Shown here in pieces: positions 6,164 to 62,364 of a stretch of 64,000 bases of DNA. The position numbers were made by a program, and so were the translations under genes. Numbering within the stretch: position 1 is the first letter of the stretch; the number at the start of each line of letters is the position of its first letter. The notes beneath the pieces were generated by a model. That model had not been told where the DNA came from. It was given only the letters and a program-made list of their open reading frames with translations, and searched no databases. The stretch is from Eledone cirrhosa (lineage: Eukaryota), in assembly GCA_964016885.1 (NCBI GenBank), contig OZ024740.1, positions 232,376,001 to 232,440,000 of the forward strand. The letters are read 5' to 3'.

Positions 6164-6504
6164 TATATATATATTGTAAAAAGAGGGAACTAGCTGTTCA
6201 AACGGTAAGAACTCTTGTCTCAAGTCCCGACTCTTTATAATATAGCCATACTCAACTACCTCACATATCGATAATCTGTTGAATAATAGTCTAATTAGTT
6301 TTAAACTGGTTCTTTCCTGATATGTATATGTATATATACATATATATATGTATATATATATATATATAAATATATATAAATATGTGGGGGGTGGGAGTGC
6401 GCGCGTGTGTTTTTTCAACCCATATATATTTTATGCTTGTATATCTAAGTAATATTAATTGTATTTTGCATTCGATTATATATAAATATTTTTATTTTAT
6501 AATA

Positions 6505-6753
6505 ATAATTATTTCTACTTTTGACACAAGGCCAGTAATTACCCAGTGCATTACTGGTACTTTATTTTATTGACCCCGTAAGGATGAAAGGCAAAGTTAA
6601 TCTCGGCGGGATTTGAACTCAGAATGGCAAGGGCTGTAGCTTTATGCGTCAAATAATTGTTTCTATTTTAGGCACAAGGCCAGCAATTATCCAGTACATT
6701 ACTGGTACTTTATTTTATCGACCCCGTAAGGATGAAAGGCAAAGTTAACCTCG
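6505..6753 (-). mobile_element. Two tandem 5'-truncated copies of tRNA-derived SINE family 1
   Basis: Core ttaactttgcctttcatccttacggggtc(g/a)ataaaataaagtaccagtaatg and tail ggccttgtg...tagaaa occur twice. Confidence 0.9.
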
Positions 6754-7754: not shown

Positions 7755-8006
7755 ATATATAGGTAAAAAGGAAAAGATAATGCTGACAAATTATTCCCAG
7801 TGAAAACTAGTTTAATTAGGAATAAGTATAAATTAGTAATAAGTATTGGTTAATATTCAATTTTAGCTTTAAGTTTTTATGCGCAACCGGTAAAAACTTA
7901 AAACTAAAATTGAATACTAACCAATACTTATTACTAATTTATACTTATTCCTAATTAAACTAGTTTTCACTGGGAATAATTTGTCAGCATTTTCTTTTCC
8001 TTTTTA

Positions 8007-8015
<9 letters not shown>
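7755..8015. repeat. ~125-bp-arm inverted repeat module beside (TA)n; single-arm relative at 63231-63362
   Basis: 7755-7879 is the near reverse complement of 7891-8015, with spacer tgcgcaaccgg. Confidence 0.9.
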
Positions 8016-10859: not shown

Positions 10860-10936
<77 letters not shown>

Positions 10937-10940
<4 letters not shown>

Positions 10941-11339
10941 ACAAAGTTCTTTCATCACACATTCGGTGACCTCTTCAGTGACTGGGGATTCTTTTCTTTG
11001 TTTTGTGCATCTCCTTTGTTCTGTCCTACGCTAACTAGATGTCGTAGGACAGAACAAATGAAAGGCACAAAACAAAGAAAAGAATCCCAGTCACTGAAGA
11101 GGTCACAGAATGTGTGACGAAAGAAGTTTGACAATACATGAACAACCGTCCGGTTGTGGAACCAACCAACTGGAAAGTTATAAATTCTTAAAGTTATAAA
11201 TTTAATTTATAATAAATTGGAGTGAAACAACTGGTGCGTGTGTTGCTTATTGGCAACATGATCCTCCCAAAATATAACAATATCGGTTTCAACAAACGTT
11301 TTCAGATAAAGAATCATGCTAAACAAATTCAGAAGCAAT
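10937..11339 (+). mobile_element. Penelope-like pseudo-LTR remnant: inverted 94-bp piece plus forward pLTR with HHR (11090-11132)
   Basis: 10937-11030 is the reverse complement of 11043-11135; forward part aligns with 12558-12802; (TA)n flanks. Confidence 0.85.
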
Positions 11340-14560: not shown

Positions 14561-15041
14561 ACATATATATATATGAACATATATATGTATGTTTATATGG
14601 GAAGGAGCGAAAAAGAGAACTGGAGGTTGAGAGGGAGAGAGGGAGGGAGAGAGAGAGGGAAATGGTGTGAGCGTGGGAATGGCAGAGAAAGGGAGAATCA
14701 GGGGGATGTAGCAATTTTAGAAGAGTGAAGTTTATTAAGAAAATAAGAAATTGCGTGCATCATTTGAGGGTGCATGTTGGAGAGGGTAAAGAGAAAGTGG
14801 ACTGATATTGAGCACAAGAGGTTCGGTTAAATGAAGTAGAAACAACTGTGCAGTGATAGTGAGTGTGTAAGAAATATATTTATATATATATAGAAATATA
14901 TAGAAATATAGAAATATAGATATATAGATTGAGAGAGAGAGGGTGAAAAAGGAACAGAGAGATAGGTGAAAAGCCAATTTTGTATCTGATTCAATAAAGT
15001 CGTAACAATCACCATGATTTATAATAATTATTATTATCTTA

Positions 15042-15222
15042 GGGCGGTGATTTGGCAGTATCGGTAGAGCGTCGGACATGCTTTCCAGCATAGTTACGTC
15101 CCTTTACGATCTGAGTTCAAATCCGGTCGAGGTTAACTTTGCCTTTCATCCTTACGGGGTCGATAAAATAAAGTACCAGTAATGTACTGGGTAATTGCTG
15201 GCCTTATGCCTAAAATAGAAAC
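15042..15222 (+). mobile_element. SINE family 1, full length, 16-bp TSD
   Basis: A/B-box-like head (tggcagtatcggtaga...gagttcaaatcc), conserved core; TSD aattattattatctta at 15026 and 15223. Confidence 0.92.
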
Positions 15223-15239
15223 AATTATTATTATCTTAT

Positions 15240-18605: not shown

Positions 18606-18776
18606 AAGGGCGGTAGAGGTTCGACGCCATGATTTGAAGCATAGAGTTACGGCCCTTTATGATCTGAGTTCAAATCCCGCCAAGGTTAACTTTGTCATTC
18701 ATCCTTACGGAGTCTTTAAAATAAAGTACCAGTAATGCACTGGATAATTGCTGGCCTTGTGCCAAAAGTAGAAATA
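18606..18776 (+). mobile_element. SINE family 1
   Basis: Conserved core and tail; flanking duplication ttattacctatat. Confidence 0.88.
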
Positions 18777-18799
18777 ATTATTACCTATATCTTTGAATG

Positions 18800-23130: not shown

Positions 23131-23264
23131 CAGAGTGTTGTAGTTTGCTTCAAGCATCATTGAATAGGAAACACAAATTTAAATAATTTTTGAAACCAAA
23201 CAATGTACTAGAAAATGAAATTGCTAGGCTAACAATACAATCTTGCCTTAGTAAATTTAATAAT

Positions 23265-23444
23265 TGTTTCTACTTTTGGCACAAGGCCAGCAATTACCCA
23301 GTGCATTACTGCTACTTTATTTTATCGACCCCGTAAGGATGAAAGGCAAAGTTAACCTCGGTGGGATTTGAAATCAGAATGGCAAGGACCGTAACTCTAT
23401 GCATCAAAGGATGGCGTCCGACCCTCTACCAATACTGCCAATCC
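23265..23444 (-). mobile_element. SINE family 1, near full length, TSD aaatttaataat
   Basis: Head, core and tail present; 12-bp TSD at 23253 and 23445. Confidence 0.92.
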
Positions 23445-23893
23445 AAATTTAATAATGCCAAATGTGTTCGGGCTTAGAAACCAATTATCAAGGTAGTATC
23501 CCTGTGAGAGGCTATAAGGATCGATCGGAGTTGATTTGTTATGAAGGAAGATTTAAGTTAAATGTAATGAAAATACTTTAAAATTTCGAGCGTGCGCGTT
23601 GTGAAATGTATGGGGAAAACTGTATGATATACGCATGTGTGAGCGTGAATGTAAGTGTGCTTAGTGGGATGTATGTATGTGTGTGCATGAATGTAATTTT
23701 GTATAGTGAAAGGCATGTGCGAATATGTATATAATAAAAATGGAAAAATATGTATGTGTGTGAGTCTACGTGTGTATGCCTAGTGAGGAAAAATATTTAA
23801 TTTGAAAGAAAGAATGAAACAAGGCACTGGATATTAGAATACAGGCGTACTTCTTTCCATTCGATTATTGATTCTAGGTTTTAATTGCTTGAT

Positions 23894-28583: not shown

Positions 28584-28625
28584 AAGAAAGAGAGATTTAT
28601 ATAATTATGTCTCATATAAAATAAT

Positions 28626-28726
28626 TGTTTCTACTTTAGGCACAAGGCCAGTAATTACCCAGTGCATTACTCGTACTTTATTTTATCGACCCCGTAAGGA
28701 TGAAAGGCAAAGTCAACCTCGGCGGG
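28626..28726 (-). mobile_element. 5'-truncated SINE family 1 with TSD taaaataat
   Basis: TSD at 28617 and 28727; the empty site is visible in the relative at ~31045. Confidence 0.9.
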
Positions 28727-31460: not shown

Positions 31461-31461
<1 letters not shown>

Positions 31462-32577
31462 CTAGCTAGAAAAATGCGTACAGCAAAAAAAAGTAATATT
31501 GTTGGAACAAACCTTTAAAAATACAGGACAAGGAAGTAAGATAAACCTTTAAAAATACAGGACAAAGAACTAAGATAAAACTTTAAAAGAATAGGACAAG
31601 GAATATAAATTTTTACAATAATATTAGTGGCAAAATTCAATTGGTAAAAAATTGAGTTTCCATCATTACACCAATTACAACTATGATGTTCCGCATGCAT
31701 CCACTCCAACCATGATCACTTGTCTGTCATCTTTCCCGGTCCAACTCCTCGCGGATGACCCGGCGCAACTCGGACTGGGTCGGAGCAGGAACTGGAGGGG
31801 GAGAGGGAGGGGTACGGGTCTTGACTCTGGGACGATGACGGCGAGTGACCAAGGTGAATGGGCCCGTGTTCGACTCGGAATCCTGCTGGTCCTCGATGAC
31901 ACTTTGAGGCACGGTTGACGGTTCCGGACTGGCTTCATGGGCAGTGGTAGAAGGGCAGGTGGATAGGGCAGAGTGCTTCTTCCTGGGAGAGCACTTGAAG
32001 CAGGTGAAGCCGGCGCCGGACTCGTTGAACCACTTCCAGACAGCACTGGGCATGTTGGCGCAGCAATGATGAAAGTTGAAGCAGGCGACGAGGGGGGAGG
32101 AGGTGGAGGCGTTGGTGCAGGAGCAACAGACTGCTGATTTGGGAGTCATTGTAGCTGGGGGATGCAGGCGCTGAGGGGGCTCGAGTAGAAGGGAAGAACA
32201 GAAATGAACCATGATGACTTTTCCTACATTTTTCCTGGCCCACTTCCTCATGAACCAATGAACCAGTTGGTACAACTCGGACTTGGAGGAGGAACACAAG
32301 ACAGGGATCAATTTCATTGTATTGATATTTCTCATTAAGTAATTTCATGTTACTCAAATAAATCACTTTTATTTGATCAATTATCTATTTTTCCAATAAA
32401 ATTTTTGCCACTAATATTATTGTAAAAATTTATATTCCTTGTCCTATTCTTTTAAAGTTTTATCTTAGTTCTTTGTCCTGTATTTTTAAAGGTTTATCTT
32501 ACTTCCTTGTCCTGTATTTTTAAAGGTTTGTTCCAACAATATTACTTTTTTTTGCTGTACGCATTTTTCTAGCTAGT
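31461..32577. repeat. 175-bp inverted repeat (31461-31635 / 32403-32577) built of ~34-bp subrepeats
   Basis: Arms are reverse complements by eye. Confidence 0.95.
31681..32149 (-). pseudogene. PHD-finger / CR1-L2 ORF1-like fragment (cargo of the IR cassette)
   Basis: CCSC...LVAC..FHHCC...FTCFKC, then ELRRVIREELDRER and frameshifted RQVIMVGV. Confidence 0.55.
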
Positions 32578-33039
32578 TTCCTATTTTTCAAGGCAATGCA
32601 AACAACAACTACTTAATTAAATAGTTATTACTTTAGTTACTTCTATCAAAAAATCCCAAAAATGATGTTAATGAAAACTATAGGTGAAAGTGAAGCTATT
32701 CTTTTGTGACCTCTTAGTTACTTGTACCAATTTTGAATTTAATTCAAGCTACAGTGTCAGCCTGTGCATTGGAGTCACAGAAATAAGTTGAGATATTTTA
32801 TCTAATTGGTACAAGCATCCACTCCACATGGCGGGGACATAGGTCAGATCGTGGAGCACTCACCTATCTTAAAAATATTAACTTATGATAAATAAGAGTC
32901 ATTTAAGAAAATACAATTTTTTTAAATTAGTAGGTGAGCATTAACAACTGAATCTAAATGGAGCAAATTTGCACCATTTGCATTTAGTTGAAAATAACAT
33001 TTTAATTAAACATGACAAATTCTAATGCAATAGAAGGCA

Positions 33040-33312
33040 AATATCAATTTTCACATGCAAATTTTTTTGGGATTTTTTTCACGCGCGCCATTTTTGGTCG
33101 ATTTTTTGTCAATTTTTCACATGCAAATTTTTTTGGGTTTTTTTGATTTTTTTTCACGCGCGCCATTTTTGTCGATTTTTTGTCAATTTTTCACATGATA
33201 ATTTTTTTTTGGATTTTTGGATTTTCTTCACGCACGCCATTTTTGTCGATTTTTTGTCAATTTTTCACATGATAATTTTTTTTGGATTTTTGTATTTTCT
33301 TCACGCGCTTTT
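33040..33312. repeat. ~55-60-bp tandem repeat inside the Helitron-like element
   Basis: ttcacgcgcgccatttttgtcgattttttgtcaatttttcacatg repeated 3-4 times. Confidence 0.85.
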
Positions 33313-33890
33313 TGGTATGCATTATTCATATGTTTTGCTTGTTCTGATTGTCTTTTTTCTTTTATTTCAGCAGCTTTCCGTTTTTTATACTCCCTATTCC
33401 TAATGGCATTTTTTCTCCGTTTTTCATTCTCTTTATGAATTTTTTGATCTTTGGGACATTCGGAAGCACTATCAGTCTCATTGAATTCAAATTCAGGTCC
33501 AGGATTTAATTCAACACAACCGATAATAAGCAATGATAAGATCAGTGCACGTGTTCTATATTTCTGATTGGAAATCGGGTAAATTCGTTTATTGGATTTG
33601 TAAAAAGCCGCCTGAATGTGAATTTCATCATTCGAATTGCCCGATTGTGGAATTGTTTCATTCGAAATGGAAATATTGCATTTTCGCGCCAGGCAAAAAA
33701 GTAATAAGCCGATCAAAAAGCCGCGAAACGTATATGGTGACTTTTTTCGAAAGCCGCGAAACGTATGAAGTGACCTTTTGCGATTTTTTTTGCGACCATT
33801 TTGGCGAGACTTTTGCAGGGAAACAAATTTTTCATTTGTAATAGTCAAAATAAATAAGCCGATAAAAAAGCCGAGAGACGTCATTTTCAT
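33228..33890 (-). pseudogene. Relic ORF with 2A-like motif followed by a charged K/E/R-rich segment (possible Helitron ORF N-terminus)
   Basis: ALILSLLIIGCVELNPGP then ENEKRRKNAIRNREYKKRKAAEIKEKRQ; same sense as the element. Confidence 0.55.
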
Positions 33891-34216
33891 ATGTCAAATG
33901 AGCACACTATTCGCACCTATCGCAAATGAGTTCACTACTCGCACCTATCGGTACAAAAAATAGCACAACTATTCACAACTATTAGTACGAATCCAAATGA
34001 TTTTCTGAATTTCTAGTATATCAATCAGCGACTGCTTTGAAAGAGAACAATGCAGTGAGTGATTACTCATTTGAATATAAATAGAAGACAACCTCAACTA
34101 GTTTGCAACGTGTGACCACTTATCGCGAGATAGGAGAACATAATAGCTCCTAATTAGCTCAATGATTAATGTTTACTGCCACATTGTATCAACATTTAAA
34201 ATTCAAATTCAAAAAA

Positions 34217-34775
34217 ATAACCGCAGTCACTGGGGGGGGGGGGTTCAAATAACCACCGCACCCCGAATAACCGCAGTCACTAGGGGGGGTTCGAATAAGA
34301 CCCTCACCCCAAATAACAGCAGTCACTGGGGGAGGGTTCGAATAAGCGCCTCACCCCGAATAATCGCAGTCACTGTGGGGGGGGGTTCGAATAAGCGCCG
34401 CACCCCGAATAACCGCAGTCACTGTGGGGGGGGGGGTTCGAATAAGCGCCTCACCCCGAATAATCGCAGTCACTGGGGGAGGGTTCGAATAAGCGCCGCA
34501 CCCCGAATAACCGCAGTCACTGGGGGGAGGGTTCGAATAAGCGCCGCACCCCGAATAATCGCAGTCACTGGGGGGAGGGTTCGAATAAGCGCCGCACCCC
34601 GAATAACCGCAGTCACTGGGGGGAGGGTTCGAATAAGCGCCGCACCCCGAATAATCGCAGTCACTGGGGGGAGGGTTCGAATAAGCGGGGGGGGGGGGGG
34701 TTCGAATAAGCGTCTCACCCCGAATAATCGCAGTCACTGGGGGAGGGTTCGAATAAGCGCCGCACCCCGAATAAC
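34217..34775. repeat. GC-rich 48-bp tandem minisatellite (~11 units) inside the Helitron-like element
   Basis: ccccgaataaccgcagtcactggggggagggttcgaataagcgccgca units. Confidence 0.95.
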
Positions 34776-35264
34776 CCCTTATCCTCCTCTGACCGGTCCC
34801 AAGAGATGCATCAAATGCACAGAGCGTCACCCTTACTCACTCACTTACTCACTTGAACACAGTTTTTTTCAGCAAACTTTGATCATAACTTTTTTTGTGC
34901 TGAACGAAATTTCGAGATTTTTAGCTTAAGAGATGTGCAATGATTTACTCTCCATGCTCATATAACTTTCATGTGATTTTGATAATCGGAAGACATTCTA
35001 ATAATGCTGTAAAGAGACGATTGCCAACGAAATCACTAAGACAACAATATTACTAAACCGACTACCGTCGGTTTAGGATATATGTATATGTATGTATGTA
35101 TGTGTATATATATATATATGTATGTATGTATGTATGTATATATATATATATATGTATGTATGTATGTATATATATATGTATGTATATATGTATGTATGTA
35201 TATATATGTATGTATGTATATATATATGTATGTATGTATGTATGTATATATATATGTATGTATA

Positions 35265-35521
35265 ACAGAGCGTCACCCTTACTCACTCACTTACTCACTT
35301 GAACACAGTTTTTTTCAGCAAACTTTGATCATAACTTTTTTTGTGCTGAACGAAATTTCGAGATTTTTAGCTTAAGAGATGTGCAATGATTTACTCTCCA
35401 TGCTCATATAACTTTCATGTGATTTTGATAATCGGAAGACATTCTAATAATGCTGTAAAGAGACGATTGCCAACGAAATCACTAAGACAACAATATTACT
35501 AAACCGACTACCGTCGGTTTA

Positions 35522-35524
<3 letters not shown>
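35265..35524 (-). repeat. 260-bp duplicate of the Helitron-like 5' end (34819-35078)
   Basis: Apparently identical sequence, separated by a (TATG/TA)n tract. Confidence 0.92.
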
Positions 35525-35783: not shown

Positions 35784-35928
35784 CGTGCGCGTGTGTGTGT
35801 GTGTCTTTGTGTGTGTGTGTGTATACAAGTGTATGAATTTAAGTCAACCGCTTGCTTATATCTTTTATCTTAGTGGTTCAACAAATAGAGTTGGATAAAA
35901 TAAATGTTGCGCTTGAAATATAAATATT

Positions 35929-36111
35929 TGTTTCTACTTTTGGCACAAGGCCAGCAACTACCCAGTACATTACTGGTACTTTATTTTATCTACCCCCGTA
36001 AGGATGAAAGGCAAAGTTAACCTCGGCGAGATTTGAACTCACAACATAAAGGGACGCAACTCTATGCTCCAATGCATGGCGTCCGACCCTCTACCGATAC
36101 TGCCAATCCAC
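35929..36111 (-). mobile_element. SINE family 1, full length, 19-bp TSD cgcttgaaatataaatatt
   Basis: TSD at 35910 and 36112. Confidence 0.93.
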
Positions 36112-36719
36112 CGCTTGAAATATAAATATTGACATCCATTTGATCGACTAAAACCCCAATCTTGGGAGGCTGTGCTCTCAACATGTTCTTCAAACTAAGA
36201 ATATAAAATAAAAGAATATATACAGCGACAGATAAAGGAGGAGAAACAGAGATTGAGCGAGTGAGGAGGAATGCACTTAAATTTATTGTGCTCACATAAT
36301 TATGTTAAAAAACTTCGCTTTTCAATATAAATTCATTTTTATATGCTCCTTATTGTTATTGTTGTTTAACACCAAGTTAGCCCTGAATGAGCAAACCTAT
36401 GATGAAAGGCATTCCAGCTGTGATAATTCTGTCATTTTCAAATAAGTAGCACTACATTATATAGAGCGATTGTGGTAGAGGTATGGTTTAAATATTTCTA
36501 GCTGATCAGTACACCAGGTAAATCAGGTGTGTACAATATATTCCATTGGCGGGCCACTTTTGAACATTGGAACAACTATTGCGGCCATTAATATTTATTA
36601 AGCACTATTCCAAAGATTCACCACAACTTCTTTCCATAACACGGACCTGGGAAATTATAATACGACATAACCCTATCAGTGAAACCCTTTAGTATAGGTC
36701 AACTAACAGAACCACCTCC

Positions 36720-38218: not shown

Positions 38219-38383
38219 GGTTTCTTATATAGACCCCAGTGCGTGACTGGTACTTTATTTTATCGAGCCCATAAGGATGAAAGGCAAAGTTAACCTCAGA
38301 GGGATTTGAGCTCAGATCATAAAGAGCCGTAACTCTATGCTTGCAAAGCATGGCGTCCGACCCTCTACCGATACTGCCAATCC
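38219..38383 (-). mobile_element. SINE family 1 variant with 18-bp TSD actttttcaaataataat
   Basis: TSD at 38201 and 38384. Confidence 0.9.
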
Positions 38384-38454
38384 ACTTTTTCAAATAATAA
38401 TAATAATAATGACAACAACAACAATAATAATAATAACGATAATAATAATATATT

Positions 38455-40790: not shown

Positions 40791-40980
40791 CGGTGAATTG
40801 GCAGTATCGGTAGAGGGTTGGATGCCATGCTTTGATGCATAGAGTTACGGCCCTTGCCATTCTGAGTTCAAATCCCACCGAGGTTAACTTTGCCTTTCAT
40901 CCTTACGGGGTCGATAAAATAAAGTACCAGTAATGCACTGGGTAATTGCTGGCCTTGTGCCAAAAGTAGAAACAATTATT
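40791..40980 (+). mobile_element. SINE family 1
   Basis: Full head, core and tail. Confidence 0.92.
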
Positions 40981-40984
40981 TATT

Positions 40985-43195: not shown

Positions 43196-43960
43196 GAACA
43201 TGTTCTTTTGTATCAGAAGGCTGCGTGTTGCCTGTTGCCAATTTAGTAGTAATATCATTGGTTGTTGTGGGATACGAAGTTGTTGTTGAATAGTAATTTT
43301 GTTGTAAAACCTCAGGAGTAATAGCGATATGAGATTGACCAACAAGGAAAACTCAATTGCAAATCTTGATGTTTCTGTTCGTTTTATGGGTTGCGACGAT
43401 AAAATGTGCAAAATATAACCTAACCAGAATAGGTACAAGATTTGATATAACAGAGAGACTTTCGATAACAGCGATGGGTATGTATAACATCATTTTGTTG
43501 TGATACGTTAAATTTGTGATTGTATGCATGAATACACAAACGCTGGTTGAGATAAGTTATTGTTTTGTGCACATCTGAATTTCTGGTGCGTTGGCAGCAG
43601 TACCTTAATGAATAATGCGTGGTACAATCGGGTGTGTGTAGTCTATTCTTGTCAGGGACCAGCAGATTGAGAGAAAAGAACAAACTCAGTTGATTTTGCT
43701 TAAATAGCCTTGGGTTTCACGTTTATTTCCGGCTATGACATTATAGTTATTAAAAAAAGACGATATTATATATAAACTGCATTAGGAGAAAATTAGTGAC
43801 GGAAATATATGCGATTATAAGTGTTATAATATAACGGCCGCTAACCGGAAGTGTTGACATTTGACAATTTTAAAGAAGTGAATCTTTGAATAAGCTATAA
43901 AATACATTTAATCAACAGCCACGAAATTTAGTAGATAAATTATGTAATATTCATTCATTA

Positions 43961-44150
43961 TGGTGGATTGGCAGTATCGGTAGAGGGTCGGACGTCATGC
44001 TTTGACGCATAGAATTACGGCCCTTCCCACTCTGAGTTCAAATCCCGCCGAGGTCAACTTTGCCTTTCATCCTTACGGGGTCGATAAAATAAAGTACCAG
44101 TAATGTACTGGGTAATTGCTAGCCTTGTGCCAAAAGTAGAAACAATTATT
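43961..44150 (+). mobile_element. SINE family 1
   Basis: Full head, core and tail. Confidence 0.92.
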
Positions 44151-44434
44151 TATTCAAAGTAATCCAAATTGTTTTACAAACGGGGTAAAAAAATATATTC
44201 TGGATGCAGTCCCGCACTCCTTTCTTTATTATAGTTAAGATTTTGGTAGTCACCGTTTCATATCCACTGATGTAACCATAAGAATTTCGCAACACACACA
44301 TACACACACACACAGCGACACATACACATACACACACACACACGTACATACGCACACACATATACCCACAAACACTCACACACACAAACACACATACGCA
44401 CACGCGCACATACGCACACACACACATATATATA

Positions 44435-47281: not shown

Positions 47282-49249
47282 TCCTAAACGGACGGTAGTC
47301 CGTTTAGTAATAATGTTGTGGTCGTGTTTTCGTTGGCAATCGTCTGTTTACGACAGTACAGCGCGGCTCTACTTTATTTAACTGAGATAAAACTTATATG
47401 AGCATGAACAGTAGATCATTACGCATCTTTTGGCTTAAAAATCTAGAAATTTGGTCCAGCGGGAAAAAGTTTATAATCAAAGTTTGCTGATAAATCTTGT
47501 GTTCAAGTGAGTGAGTAGTAAGCGTGACGCTAGGGGAGGTAATTACGAGGTAATTACAAGGGGAGGTAATCTAATATATTTCAAATTGTATTTTTAACTA
47601 AATTCATTTATCATAGTCTAATATTTTAAAAATAGGTGAGTGCTCCACGATGATGACCCATGTCCCCGCCATGTGGAGGGGATGCTTAGGAGCCATTCAG
47701 ATATCATGTGACCATTTTTGGTTCGCGGTGTCCACATGATATCTGGATGTATGAGCAACTAAGAGGTGATCAATAGAAATAGAATTATTTTTTGAAGTTT
47801 TCATGCACAGCACTTTTTGGGATTTTAAATAAAAGTTAATATCATAATTCTTATTTTGTATACCCACATTGCAGAAACAGAGAAACATGACAATCCTATA
47901 TAAAGGTCGTAGACAGCAGTATCAGTTTTTATCCGTAACACCATTGAAATGCACAAGTTTCACCAATTCACTATTATGCACTAATCATCTCAAATGCATT
48001 CATGATTTACTAGCTTTGTCATTAAGCCAGTTGCCTCAACTAGATTGCAATTATACTCAAAAGAACTTTAAAATGTCAATCACTTGTCAGTAATTCACTA
48101 TGATCTTTTAATTATTAGATAGTTGTTGCTTGCATTGCCTTAAAAAATAGTAGACCAGATAGAAAAATGCGTACAGCAAAAAAAAGTAATATTGTTGGAA
48201 TATAAACCTTTAAAAATACAGGACAAGAAACTAAAATACAACTTTAAAAGAATAGGACAAGAAACTAAAATAAAACTTTAAAGAATTGGACAAGAAATAA
48301 AAAAATTTACAATAATATTAGTGGCAACATTTTTTTATTCGTTTCCTGTGCTATGCCTCCGTATCTTCTTGATTAGTGCATACTAATTGTCATGCTCTCA
48401 TTGTGCGTTGCCCCTGAGCGGTTGGTTCTGGTTGGGGTTGGTTGGCTGAGAAGTTCTGCTCCGTCAGAATGACCAGTGCAAGAAGAATTGGCCGATGCAG
48501 CTGTAGGTCTCCTCCAAGAATGCACTTCTGGTCCCGCAACACCAGACGAAGATGGAGAAGACGACCGGGACAAGATGTCGACTCTGATCACCGACTACGG
48601 AACCTCCCTTAACCACCGGTCCTCCCTCCCTCTGTCCCGTCATCCCCCCAGTCCTCCTGCTTCCCCTTCCTGTGCCAGAAAGCTGTGGCACGCATTCATC
48701 TGGACTGCCGGACTTGAACTCAAGGACAAGATGCAAGGAGAAGATGGACGGGTTGGTGAAGATCAAGGATGAGCGGGACGACAAGACCGTCCGCTGCTGC
48801 TCAAGATCTGTGCTCATGGGGCCATGGGTCCATTCACATTATGCATGACACATGAGGCGTGTCGCCGAATGTTGAAAGAGGGGTATGGTTATGGCCCAAT
48901 TGGTGTTCAAACCAGGATCAAATGATCCCCCCCGGTCTGACGACGACCTCTGAATGTGGAACCCAGAGCCTATGAATGTGGAACTCGATTTTTTACCAAT
49001 AAAAATGTTGCCACTAATATTATTATAAATTTTTTTTATTTCTTGTCCAATTCTTTAAAGTTTTATCTTAGTTTCTTGTCCTATTCTTTTAAAGTTTTAT
49101 CTTAGTTTCTTGTCCTATTCTTTTAAAGTTTTATCTTAGTTTCTTGTCCTATTCTTTTAAAGTTTTATTTTAGTTTCTTGTCCTGTATTTTTAAAGGTTT
49201 ATATTCCAACAATATTACTTTTTTTTGCTGTACGCATTTTTCTATCTGG
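47282..49249 (+). mobile_element. Helitron-like element copy 2 (2.0 kb) with 5' hairpin and 3' IR cassette (arms 48154-48334 / 49001-49250)
   Basis: A|TCctaaacggac-ggta-gtccgtttag ... ttttctatCTGG|T; homologous to 31462-35078. Confidence 0.75.
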
Positions 49250-58333: not shown

Positions 58334-58351
<18 letters not shown>

Positions 58352-59190
58352 TAATATATAGAGGGGAAAGACACAGGAGAGTGTGTTTTTCATTACAGGA
58401 ATTTCTAACCACCAGCGTGAGAAGAATATAAGCTACTAGAGGTATTGGTAAAACATTAAAATTAAAAGTATAAATTGAAATGAAAAACCATCCTCACCTA
58501 AATCACACATGTACACACTCACCAGGAGCATGTTTCGCCATTTTAGTGGGTTCCAATACGGCCCGGTGGGTCATCAGCATGTGGAAGGCCAATATTGTCC
58601 GCACTACTACAGAGAGAACTAAAATAAACCACCCTTCGCACGTGTAGACATAAGAGGAATGCGTGCTCGCGGCAGTAACTGGTGGTATGAACAGAACAAG
58701 CTGCTAGAGATGGCAGCCTATACTATTCAATTTAAGGTGCTCAACAGCAGAGAGAGCGCAAGGAGCAAATATAAAGTAAAAATAACGGAGCAAAGGACTC
58801 GCGTATAATCCTGTAATTAAATGATCTCAAAGGAAATAGTTATCCTGGGCACTTTAAAATACAATATATAGAGGGGAAAGGCTGATGACCCACCGGACCG
58901 TATTGGAACCCACTAAAATGGAAACATGCTCTTGGTGAGTGTGTTCCTGTGTGATTAAGGTGAGTATGGTTTTTCATTTCAATTTATACTTTTAATTTTA
59001 ATGTTTTACCAATGCCTCTATTAGCTTATATTCTTCTCACGCTGGTGATTCGAAATTCCTGTAATGAAAAACACACTCTCCTGTGTCTTTCTCTTCTATA
59101 TATTGTATTTTAAAGTGCCCAGGATAACTAGTTCCTTCGAGCTCATTTATACAGGATTATACGCGAGTCCTTTGCTCCGTTATTTTACTA
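58334..59190. mobile_element. ~530-bp monomer (minus) plus inverted copy 58881-59190; HHR cores at 58527-58577 (-) and 58882-58930 (+)
   Basis: atatatagaggggaaag recurs at 58334 and 58864; 58881-59190 is the reverse complement of 58776-58880 joined to 58341-58578. Confidence 0.8.
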
Positions 59191-60130: not shown

Positions 60131-60244
<114 letters not shown>

Positions 60245-60245
60245 C

Positions 60246-60413
60246 AATTTGAAAAACTCAGATTTACATGTCTTGTATTCAGCCATGTAGAGCGATAAAA
60301 CGATATATATATATATACATATAAATATATATATATATAGCAATATATATATATATAGTTTTATCGCTCTACATGGCTGAATACAAGACATGTAAATCTG
60401 AGTTTTTCAAATT
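60246..60413. repeat. Perfect 56-bp inverted repeat around a (TA)n loop
   Basis: 60246-60301 is the reverse complement of 60358-60413. Confidence 0.93.
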
Positions 60414-61335
60414 TTAATAATAATATTCGATTCGTTTGCAATTATAAAAATAATTTCTTAATCCATGTGTGTAGAATGACCCCGTCATTCTCGCGCGTGT
60501 TGGCATATAAACAGACACTAATGTTTCTGGGTTATTACCCTTCATCAGTACCGCACACTGTTTACCTGCCAACTGTCAGAGCCAGTGAAAATATAAGTGT
60601 AGGTGTCATATCAGGATTAAGGAACACGTTAACACTAACGCTTCCTCATTCAAGAAACACTAAAACACCGCCAAAAATATAACAGTTAAGGTTGAAACAA
60701 GAGAAAGAAACCTTGGCAATCTCAGAGTTAAAGAAACATTAATCATAGTCAGAACACACCCACAAATCAATAATAGACTAGACACAATACCTAATATAGA
60801 ACTAGGTATACAACTGTGAAGTTAGAGGCCATTGGACTCTACAAATAAAGGCACACATATGTACGCTTACGAGCACATTATCATCCGGGAGAAATCGGGT
60901 ATATACATTCATGTATTTACATGACTCTATCTATACGTGCTTGCGTATTTGCGTGCGTGCTTACACACACACATGTATGCATGCACGTGTATGTCAGCGT
61001 GTATATATGTGTCTCAGCGGATTTAAAGGGAAACAACACTATGCCCCTTGAACTATCCAGACCATAATTTTAAAACAAAGAAGTTATGAAAAAAAAAAAC
61101 TAATAATAAAACCACTTCCGACCAGCCACATCGGACACTGGAATAGTTCCTTTATTTCGCTCGGAAGAAGACATATTAATCTCGAAATATTAAGACATAT
61201 GAATAAATTAAGGTAATAAAAAACAACCCCTGTTTATTACGATTTAATCATTTCGGTCCATCCGGCATTGTCGTGGCTTTCAAACTTCGAATTCTTTATA
61301 CTATCTACAATGCTTCAAGTAAACTACACATTCCT

Positions 61336-61916: not shown

Positions 61917-61961
61917 TATTATTATCATTATTATTGTTGTGGCTAATAAATGAAATCATTA

Positions 61962-62350
61962 TGGGGCGTGGATTGGCAGTATCAGTAGAGGGTCGGACGC
62001 CATGCTTTCCAGCATAGTTACGTCCCTTTGCGATCTGAGTTCAAATCCCGCCAAGGTTGACTTTGCCTTTCATCCTTACGGGGTCGATAAAATAAAGTAC
62101 CAGTAATGCACTGTGTAATTGCTGGCCTTGTGCCAAAAGTAGAAACAATTATTATTATTCACTGAGGTGGATAGCAGTATCGGTAGAGCGTCGGACGCTA
62201 TGCTTTGCAGCATAGTTGCTCCCCTTTACAGACTGTGTTCGAATCCCGCCGAGGTTAACTTTGCCTTTCATCCTTACGGGGTCGATAAAATAAAGTACCA
62301 GTAATACACTGGATAATTGCTGACTTTGTGTCAAAAGTAGAAACAAAAAT
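61962..62350 (+). mobile_element. Two tandem SINE family 1 copies
   Basis: Heads at ~61962 and ~62164; ttattattcact duplicated around the second. Confidence 0.92.
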
Positions 62351-62364
62351 TATTATTCACTCAC

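Follow-up and report, generated by a model that had tools for sequence, protein, structure and literature searches.

A long two-armed fold-back unit at the 3' end of HLE2-type Helitrons in Eledone cirrhosa

Introduction

Helitron1 elements, as represented by Helraiser in the accessible part of PMC4778049, begin with TC, end in CTRR, insert between A and T and leave no target-site duplication (TSD). The Helitron1 Rep motif reads IEFQKRGLPH. The 5' end of Helraiser is essential, its small 3' hairpin is the termination signal, and HUH nucleases, on the same account, cut single strands. Helitron2, Helentron and DINE-1 elements differ in both ends and enzyme. They carry an asymmetric terminal inverted repeat (TIR) beside a terminal hairpin (PMC3627910) and a short inverted repeat that partners the other terminus (PMC4067079); in the available portions of these two papers they insert at TT or TTTT|T/C, have small hairpins and, in the case of Helentrons, encode an AP endonuclease.

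The closest described systems are proto-Helentron of Phytophthora and the HLE2-reverse/FoHeli3-5 elements. As far as the available text of PMC4067079, PMC11417382 and PMC5148889 goes, these combine an HLE2-type RepHel containing DUF6570, no AP endonuclease, a 5' stem-loop and short asymmetric TIRs of 12-16 bp. Proto-Helentron also has a CTAG end, A/T insertion and no TSD, and is still placed in HLE2. The accessible part of PMC11417382 reports no proto-Helentron-like element in 404 genomes, uses DUF6570 to mark HLE2 and describes an enrichment of UCH in subgroups c and d of that clade. Within this partial literature, we found an HLE2 enzyme with HLE1-like ends published for Phytophthora only, and terminator experiments on Helitron1.

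The window analysed here is a stretch of 64,000 nucleotides of E. cirrhosa contig OZ024740.1 (GCA_964016885.1, 232,376,001 to 232,440,000, forward strand), and the genome searched comprises 3.0 Gb. A sequence-only reading of the window had proposed a rolling-circle family with an inverted-repeat cassette that serves as a slot for interchangeable cargo. We find that the two copies in the window, A and B, are deletion derivatives of an HLE2-clade Helitron (Rep-DUF6570-PIF1-UCH), and that all four lineages found (A, B, C and D) end in a two-armed fold-back unit of 0.45-1.1 kb.

Results

Two Helitron derivatives in the window

Copy A is a non-autonomous Helitron derivative on the minus strand (31462-35524), with an internal deletion but otherwise colinear with a RepHel element of 11,204 bp. 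The extent given earlier, 31462-35078, holds for the inner element and misses a second, outer 5' end that moves the real start to 35524. This outer duplicate, with TC and hairpin (35267-35524, minus), covers 257 bp at 100% identity to the inner 5' end, and the same doubling recurs at locus L078. The inner 5' terminus (35053-35078, minus) is TC followed by a 10 bp stem with a GGTA loop, and the 5' copy of a 13 bp asymmetric TIR lies at 35042-35054 (minus). Within the body are an internal tandem repeat of ~48 bp (34215-34776) and what is left of the RepHel reading frame, namely part of its start, which the internal deletion truncates (33305-33893, minus). The peptide CVELNPGP occurs in the start of the A and B RepHel frames (33228-33893, minus; loci L141 and L227) and is absent from the C1 frame examined; it resembles the 2A ribosome-skipping motif of some retroelements.

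The remainder of copy A, also on the minus strand, is the fold-back unit. A conserved pre-arm motif (TTGCCTT and an A-run, 32584-32596) precedes an internal, left arm (32388-32577), which is an inverted copy of the 3' end with CTAG and the next T included. Spacer A (31650-32387) has 55% GC and contains a 136-codon Cys-rich frame (31727-32137), and the terminal, right arm (31462-31649) ends CTAG|T, with the asymmetric TIR present inside it as the 3' copy (31492-31504). Compared over 190 bp (31461-31649 against 32388-32577), the arms are 97.9% identical, and in the predicted fold pairing is uninterrupted along the outer 175 bp.

Copy B (47282-49249, plus) is a non-autonomous derivative of a sister lineage. 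Its 5' TC, hairpin and asymmetric TIR (47282-47318), with one TIR mismatch in this copy, are followed by the pre-arm motif (48135-48146), a left arm of 180 bp (48155-48334), spacer B with 53% GC, common to B copies (48335-49000), and a right arm of 249 bp ending CTGG|T (49001-49249). The 68 bp by which the right arm exceeds the left are two 34 bp subrepeats. The A and B hairpins differ by a compensatory C-G/G-C pair; outside the cassette, the two copies are alike at the 5' end, at 73-77% along about 255 bp, and in short stretches of the interior. The sequence-only reading had described long arms that end exactly at the terminus and differ by 34-bp subrepeats, that match within a copy and differ between copies, and that enclose unrelated DNA. 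Each of these points is borne out: the arms of A and B are 87% identical (CTAGCTAG versus CCAGATAG), and the local alignment score of spacer A against spacer B falls within the shuffle range (z 1.1 and 1.7, below the best of 60 dinucleotide shuffles).

Other repeats are also present in the window. A family of ~190 bp has at least 10 copies (6499-6753, 15023-15234, 18611-18783, 23234-23445, 28614-28726, 35899-36131, 38235-38385, 40791-40984, 43953-44156 and 61956-62361), and further small palindromic or TIR-like elements lie at 7763-8007, 10936-11136, 58347-59110 and 60232-60426.

Termini and target site

The ends proposed for the two copies, TC...CTRR between A and T, hold genome-wide as A|TC...CTRG|T. 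Among 56 elements with both ends called, A precedes 53, T follows 55 and 50 start with TC; the three without a preceding A look like mis-called internal 5' matches. Targets of these elements are mostly TA-rich, and no TSD was found in any of the 56, overlaps between flanks being runs of TA or another simple repeat or, once, a tandem-repeat target (a 27 bp overlap at locus L072, rejected as a TSD). The 5' TC, the 3' CTRR and the A|T target are hallmarks of HLE1, and the target is not the T/T of HLE2.

The earlier end anatomy was also right about the missing small 3' hairpin. The best fold of the last 60 nt reaches -2.0 to -4.4 kcal/mol compared with -10.2 for the 5' hairpin, and the short hairpin that HLE1 carries 10-12 nt before its 3' end is absent. 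Overlooked were the 5' hairpin itself and the asymmetric TIR. Every lineage starts with TC and a hairpin, and A, B and D have the GGTA loop in common. The asymmetric TIR, 9-13 bp long at the 5' hairpin, has its inverted counterpart 30-35 bases before the 3' end, and its sequence changes with the lineage (13 bp in A and B, 10 bp in C1, 9 bp in C3, 12 bp in D). Such lengths were reached in 0/300 shuffles for A, 1/300 for C1 and 0/300 for D. Short TIRs are an HLE2 hallmark, and those seen here correspond to the asymmetric TIR of Helitron2 (PMC3627910). The elements also have the end layout of proto-Helentron and HLE2-reverse, in which the 5' stem-loop sits at the left short TIR or upstream of it and there is no small 3' stem-loop.

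The 25-26 nt 5' hairpin occurs as tandem multimers at four loci (L077, L079, L152 and L226), with up to seven stacked 5' ends in one element. This suggests that insertions hit the 5' end repeatedly or that starts from it were aborted.

Autonomous partners and phylogeny

That these are rolling-circle elements is supported by RepHel partners sharing both ends and the cassette with copy A. There are two long A copies, one of which was measured (the 11,204 bp element), and the Pfam domains over cut-off are Helitron_like_N, DUF6570, PIF1 and UCH. Both of the intact-ended A partners read have a stop in the helicase frame. Protein searches recovered related RepHel groups at about 90% (B), 71% (C) and 60-69% (D) identity, and in C1 the frame stays open over 2,230-2,245 codons in seven copies, with all domains present. 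The C1 RepHel has UCH at its C-terminus and no endonuclease match in Pfam, the AP endonuclease being the hallmark of Helentrons.

The Rep motif here is FWR-LEYQxRGAPH. In a careful Rep tree of 24 rows (midpoint-rooted, with one clade lacking a completed test; an earlier quick tree had 53 rows), A and C fall together (100/100) within a 95/94 group of UCH/OTU-bearing RepHels, apart from the endonuclease-bearing Helentrons, and a 100/100 branch separates the GLP-motif Helitrons. The rows were hand-picked from 77 homologue matches and Helitrons of the same genome, with HLE2 c/d and proto-Helentron/HLE2-reverse references outside the tree; the likeness to subgroups c and d, as given in the available part of PMC11417382, lies in the combination of DUF6570 with UCH. 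On the contigs C16, C19, C20 and C27 there are many like-scoring Helitron Rep matches with a 362-codon open frame; those on C20 and C27 lie about 100-250 kb apart, which suggests large segmental repeats.

The transposase is thus on the HLE2 side, with DUF6570, and outside the HLE1 clade. Judged by its sequence, the element is not a canonical Helitron1, since its transposase is of the HLE2 type. From Helitron1, as described in the accessible part of PMC4778049, it is set apart by its Rep motif, by the 100/100 split, by the lack of a small 3' hairpin and by the presence of DUF6570. The lineages pair an HLE2-type enzyme with ends that look like those of HLE1, with A|TC...CTRG|T and no TSD. Compared with proto-Helentron, to the extent that PMC4067079 is available, they start with TC instead of TT and have a C-terminal UCH on the RepHel, and compared with both proto-Helentron and HLE2-reverse their 3' end is duplicated in inverted orientation 0.45-1.1 kb upstream.

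A fold-back unit in four lineages

In all lineages the arms are 136-212 bp long and the predicted stem, of 140-210 bp, is flush with the terminal CTRG|T. The inverted repeat of the last 136-212 bp lies 955-1,117 bp from the end and is preceded by the conserved motif; in C3 it lies at 421-474 bp, and a constant cassette length of 1 kb was rejected on this account. Over the outer 75 bp, identity of left to right arm reaches 100% for A, B and C1, with 99% for C2 and 85-96% for older D copies, whereas identity between A/B, C and D is 58-73%. The arms therefore derive from one ancestral end and evolve together. This agrees with the earlier proposal of a 3' module homogenised or regenerated per lineage (99-100% within A, B and C), as do the arm extensions of C1 and C3 described below.

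Long arms with subrepeats, such as the 34 bp units here, resemble Foldback elements, and the sequence-only reading gave as its alternative a Foldback-type TIR element joined to a constant flank; we also considered other TIR transposons and nesting of such an element inside a Helitron. We searched for units standing alone. Among 136 distinct two-armed units with recognisable ends, the internal pre-arm motif is on exactly one side in 136/136 and the first host base is T in 135/136; none has host DNA on both sides, so the unit does not move alone. Moreover, the 56 elements with both ends called show no TSD, the arm stops precisely at the CTRG of the Helitron, and the asymmetric TIR inside it is the counterpart of the one at the 5' end. 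A Foldback origin is, on these observations, barely tenable. At locus L249, an arm lies directly after a TA run and the other end is truncated. An inverted repeat at locus L209 was rejected as a family unit, being an unrelated insertion.

The unit is abundant. Exact matches number 965 for an 18-mer taken from the A/B arm and 2,320 for a second arm motif, corresponding to roughly 1,600 long inverted repeats in the genome. A search with the A arm gave 30 loci, of which 29 run from CTAG through cassette to body at 97-100% identity and one has an inverted cassette. Among 32 B copies, body length up to the left arm varies from 303 to 1273 bp, whereas 30 of the 32 cassettes measure 952-1112 bp. C3, the shortest multi-copy family (about 1.2 kb), has lost most of the loop and retained both arms. 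The left arm is missing in five copies (L160, L168, L190, L197 and L202); one such C1 junction, checked for copy number, occurs once in the genome. Unpaired pattern matches in C are mostly arm pairs with one mismatch.

Two loci have additional structure. At L235, two C3 elements meet tail to tail over an 8 bp TA run and form a further inverted repeat. Long B derivatives (L034, 327-683 and 870-1235) contain a GDSL-like fragment (E 0.0038, under cut-off) and an unassigned 122-codon antisense frame, set between two pre-arm motifs with a spacing of about 680 bp; the upstream motif may be a relic left arm.

Spacer DNA

The cargo count yields four distinct spacers, mutually unrelated, one per lineage. 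The enclosed DNA had been called GC-rich, which is true of A and B (53-55% overall); C and D are AT-rich at 26-29% GC. Spacer A is present in every fully read A copy, and one survey of C1 found one spacer in 19/19. We sampled 40 B sites (from the first 44 arm sites listed on contig 1, four being skipped as already known, 3 A and 1 B): 35 carry spacer B, five have lost the spacer and one arm, and none has a third cargo. Within C, the spacers of C1, C2 and C3 are rearranged forms of each other.

The origin of the spacers was searched for in several ways. The spacer A frame gave 47 matches among 66 candidates, all of them family copies, and spacer A has a PHD-like lead in Atlas (score 0.81), where spacer B has no match. 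For the spacers, Pfam yielded no match over cut-off and homologue searches yielded none, and genome searches for a donor returned family copies only, with no outside match among the fetched loci. Spacer A may resemble a LINE ORF1 fragment, and the C and D spacers (L204 and L211) contain, by eye, what could be decayed small inverted-repeat elements.

An active capture slot with frequent swapping of cargo, as proposed by the sequence-only reading, could account for four unrelated spacers in four lineages, for different spacers in A and B although their RepHels are about 90% identical, and for the gene-fragment likeness of spacer A, to the extent of its PHD lead. However, each subfamily has a single spacer in all copies read and change is seen only between lineages; different captured sequence among copies of one family, the Pack-type hallmark, was not observed. 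The AT-rich C and D spacers, the mutual rearrangements within C and the failure of genome searches to find a donor locus also speak against it. We therefore consider frequent swapping very unlikely; the spacer was replaced between A and B, as a rare lineage-level event.

Flips and arm exchange

Spacers are occasionally inverted relative to the element: 1/41 in A, 1/62 in B, 0/11 in C1 with a further 0/19, and 0/5 in D. The flipped A copy is 100% identical, which makes the flip recent. A targeted search found a second B flip in a different body, with no rare variant in common with the first.

Arms have also been extended. Relative to C2, 75 bp of right-side spacer is also found inverted beside the left arm in C1, and C3 is an inverted copy of the right 269 bp of C2 joined to the right 180 bp of C2. 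The extra arm pairing, 75 bp in C1 and about 43 bp in C3, comes from sequence that is single-copy in the C2 spacer. We infer the direction from C2 to C1 and C3, although C2 could be a recombinant. Single copies at L158 and L249 have similar switches. Three independent flips and two arm extensions seemingly copied from spacer DNA show exchange between the arms. No variant was common to both arms of one copy in 50 B cassettes (outer 95 nt, in a sample chosen for intact arm starts), and per-copy arm repair was rejected on this basis; homogenising does not occur copy by copy.

Related sequences elsewhere

Contigs of coded organism B cover 30/30 bins of the A stretch, and coded organisms C and D (these codes, distinct from our lineages, belong to one study) yield arm and pre-arm pieces. 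Viral contigs gave no match. Among 15 of 78 metagenome loci examined, none has a comparable arm pair (0/15), and the best loci end soon after the gene. Run X4, whose kind is unrecorded, has six A>G differences in the arm (32428-32524). Neither runs X1 and X12 nor any of 77 genomic A arms show them, and an antisense transcript may have undergone A-to-I editing, as a lead only. In a stretch that covers a single arm, and so lies short of any circle junction, neither a circle nor a fold-back joint turned up.

Discussion

We found no published description of a long 3' fold-back unit of this kind; subscription papers, Repbase and Dfam lie outside that search, and prior curation is possible. The available parts of PMC9741609 and PMC13085455 hold nothing on such ends. 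New here is a long end stem kept in four diverged lineages. By analogy, the long stem, read in reverse, could be the short inverted repeat of Helitron2 and Helentron greatly expanded.

We propose a model where the predicted long terminal stem serves as an end signal, replacing the missing small 3' hairpin. RepHel would nick at A|TC and peel off one strand. As the right arm emerges, the last 0.45-1.1 kb would zip into a stem, and the enzyme would pause and cut at CTRG|T. The same pairing might occasionally let one arm template the other or the loop invert, and such copying would keep the arms alike in an active master copy while remodelling the loop. The loop itself would be a passenger, deleted, inverted or replaced rarely, once per lineage. 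We favour this role because the stem sits where the small hairpin is missing and is flush with the cut site, and hold it at about even confidence. Against it, once the stem has closed over CTAG|T the enzyme could no longer reach its cut site, only about 2% of spacers are flipped, the left arm is missing from five copies, arm variants are not common to both arms of a copy, and the two A partners read have a stop in the helicase frame.

Alternatively, in the same Helitron, the stem may act as an origin for the second strand. Here, the paired 3'-OH left after the CTRG cut would prime back-synthesis, and the internal CTRG|T, on the opposite strand, would be a second nick site, as modelled on rolling-hairpin replication. 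In every lineage the predicted pairing extends to the last base and the T after it, the conserved motif lies just outside the left arm in all 136 cassettes, and flips and arm extensions are expected by-products. The Helraiser transposase, according to the accessible part of PMC4778049, cuts both strands at the right-terminus end. However, obligatory hairpin transfer predicts near-equal flip and flop, lineages differ in the bases that follow the internal CTRG|T, and the 50 B cassettes contain no variant common to both arms of a copy. We regard this as the main rival while judging it doubtful. In its strictest form, the clade would transpose through an obligatory fold-back intermediate, with the stem priming the second strand and the internal inverted CTRG|T as second RepHel nick site, a claim that we regard as doubtful. 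If true, it would describe a hybrid of rolling-circle transposition and rolling-hairpin replication, and loop replacement would be a new route of capture inside an element.

It is also conceivable that the inverted duplication was a one-off accident with no role in transposition, that recombination or repair at the inverted repeat keeps the arms symmetrical and flips the loop, and that any effect is on RNA, through a double-stranded transcript, silencing or editing. Flips and template switches occur at long inverted repeats in general, and the A>G cluster of run X4 would hint at double-stranded RNA if that run is RNA. Yet both arms and the pre-arm motif survive in lineages only 58-73% alike, and they persist in derivatives of 1.2-1.5 kb stripped of all else, where a neutral repeat is expected to be lost from minimal families. 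We find an accident of this kind unlikely.

The end-signal reading, and the stem more generally, bears on how HLE2-type Helitrons stop copying and how the peeled strand becomes double-stranded. With seven open-frame C1 copies and derivatives about 99% identical to them, the role of the arms is directly testable. Tools that seek a small 3' hairpin or TIRs of 11-18 bp are likely to miscall such elements. For the genome that carries them, roughly 1,600 long inverted repeats are a possible source of rearrangement and of double-stranded RNA.
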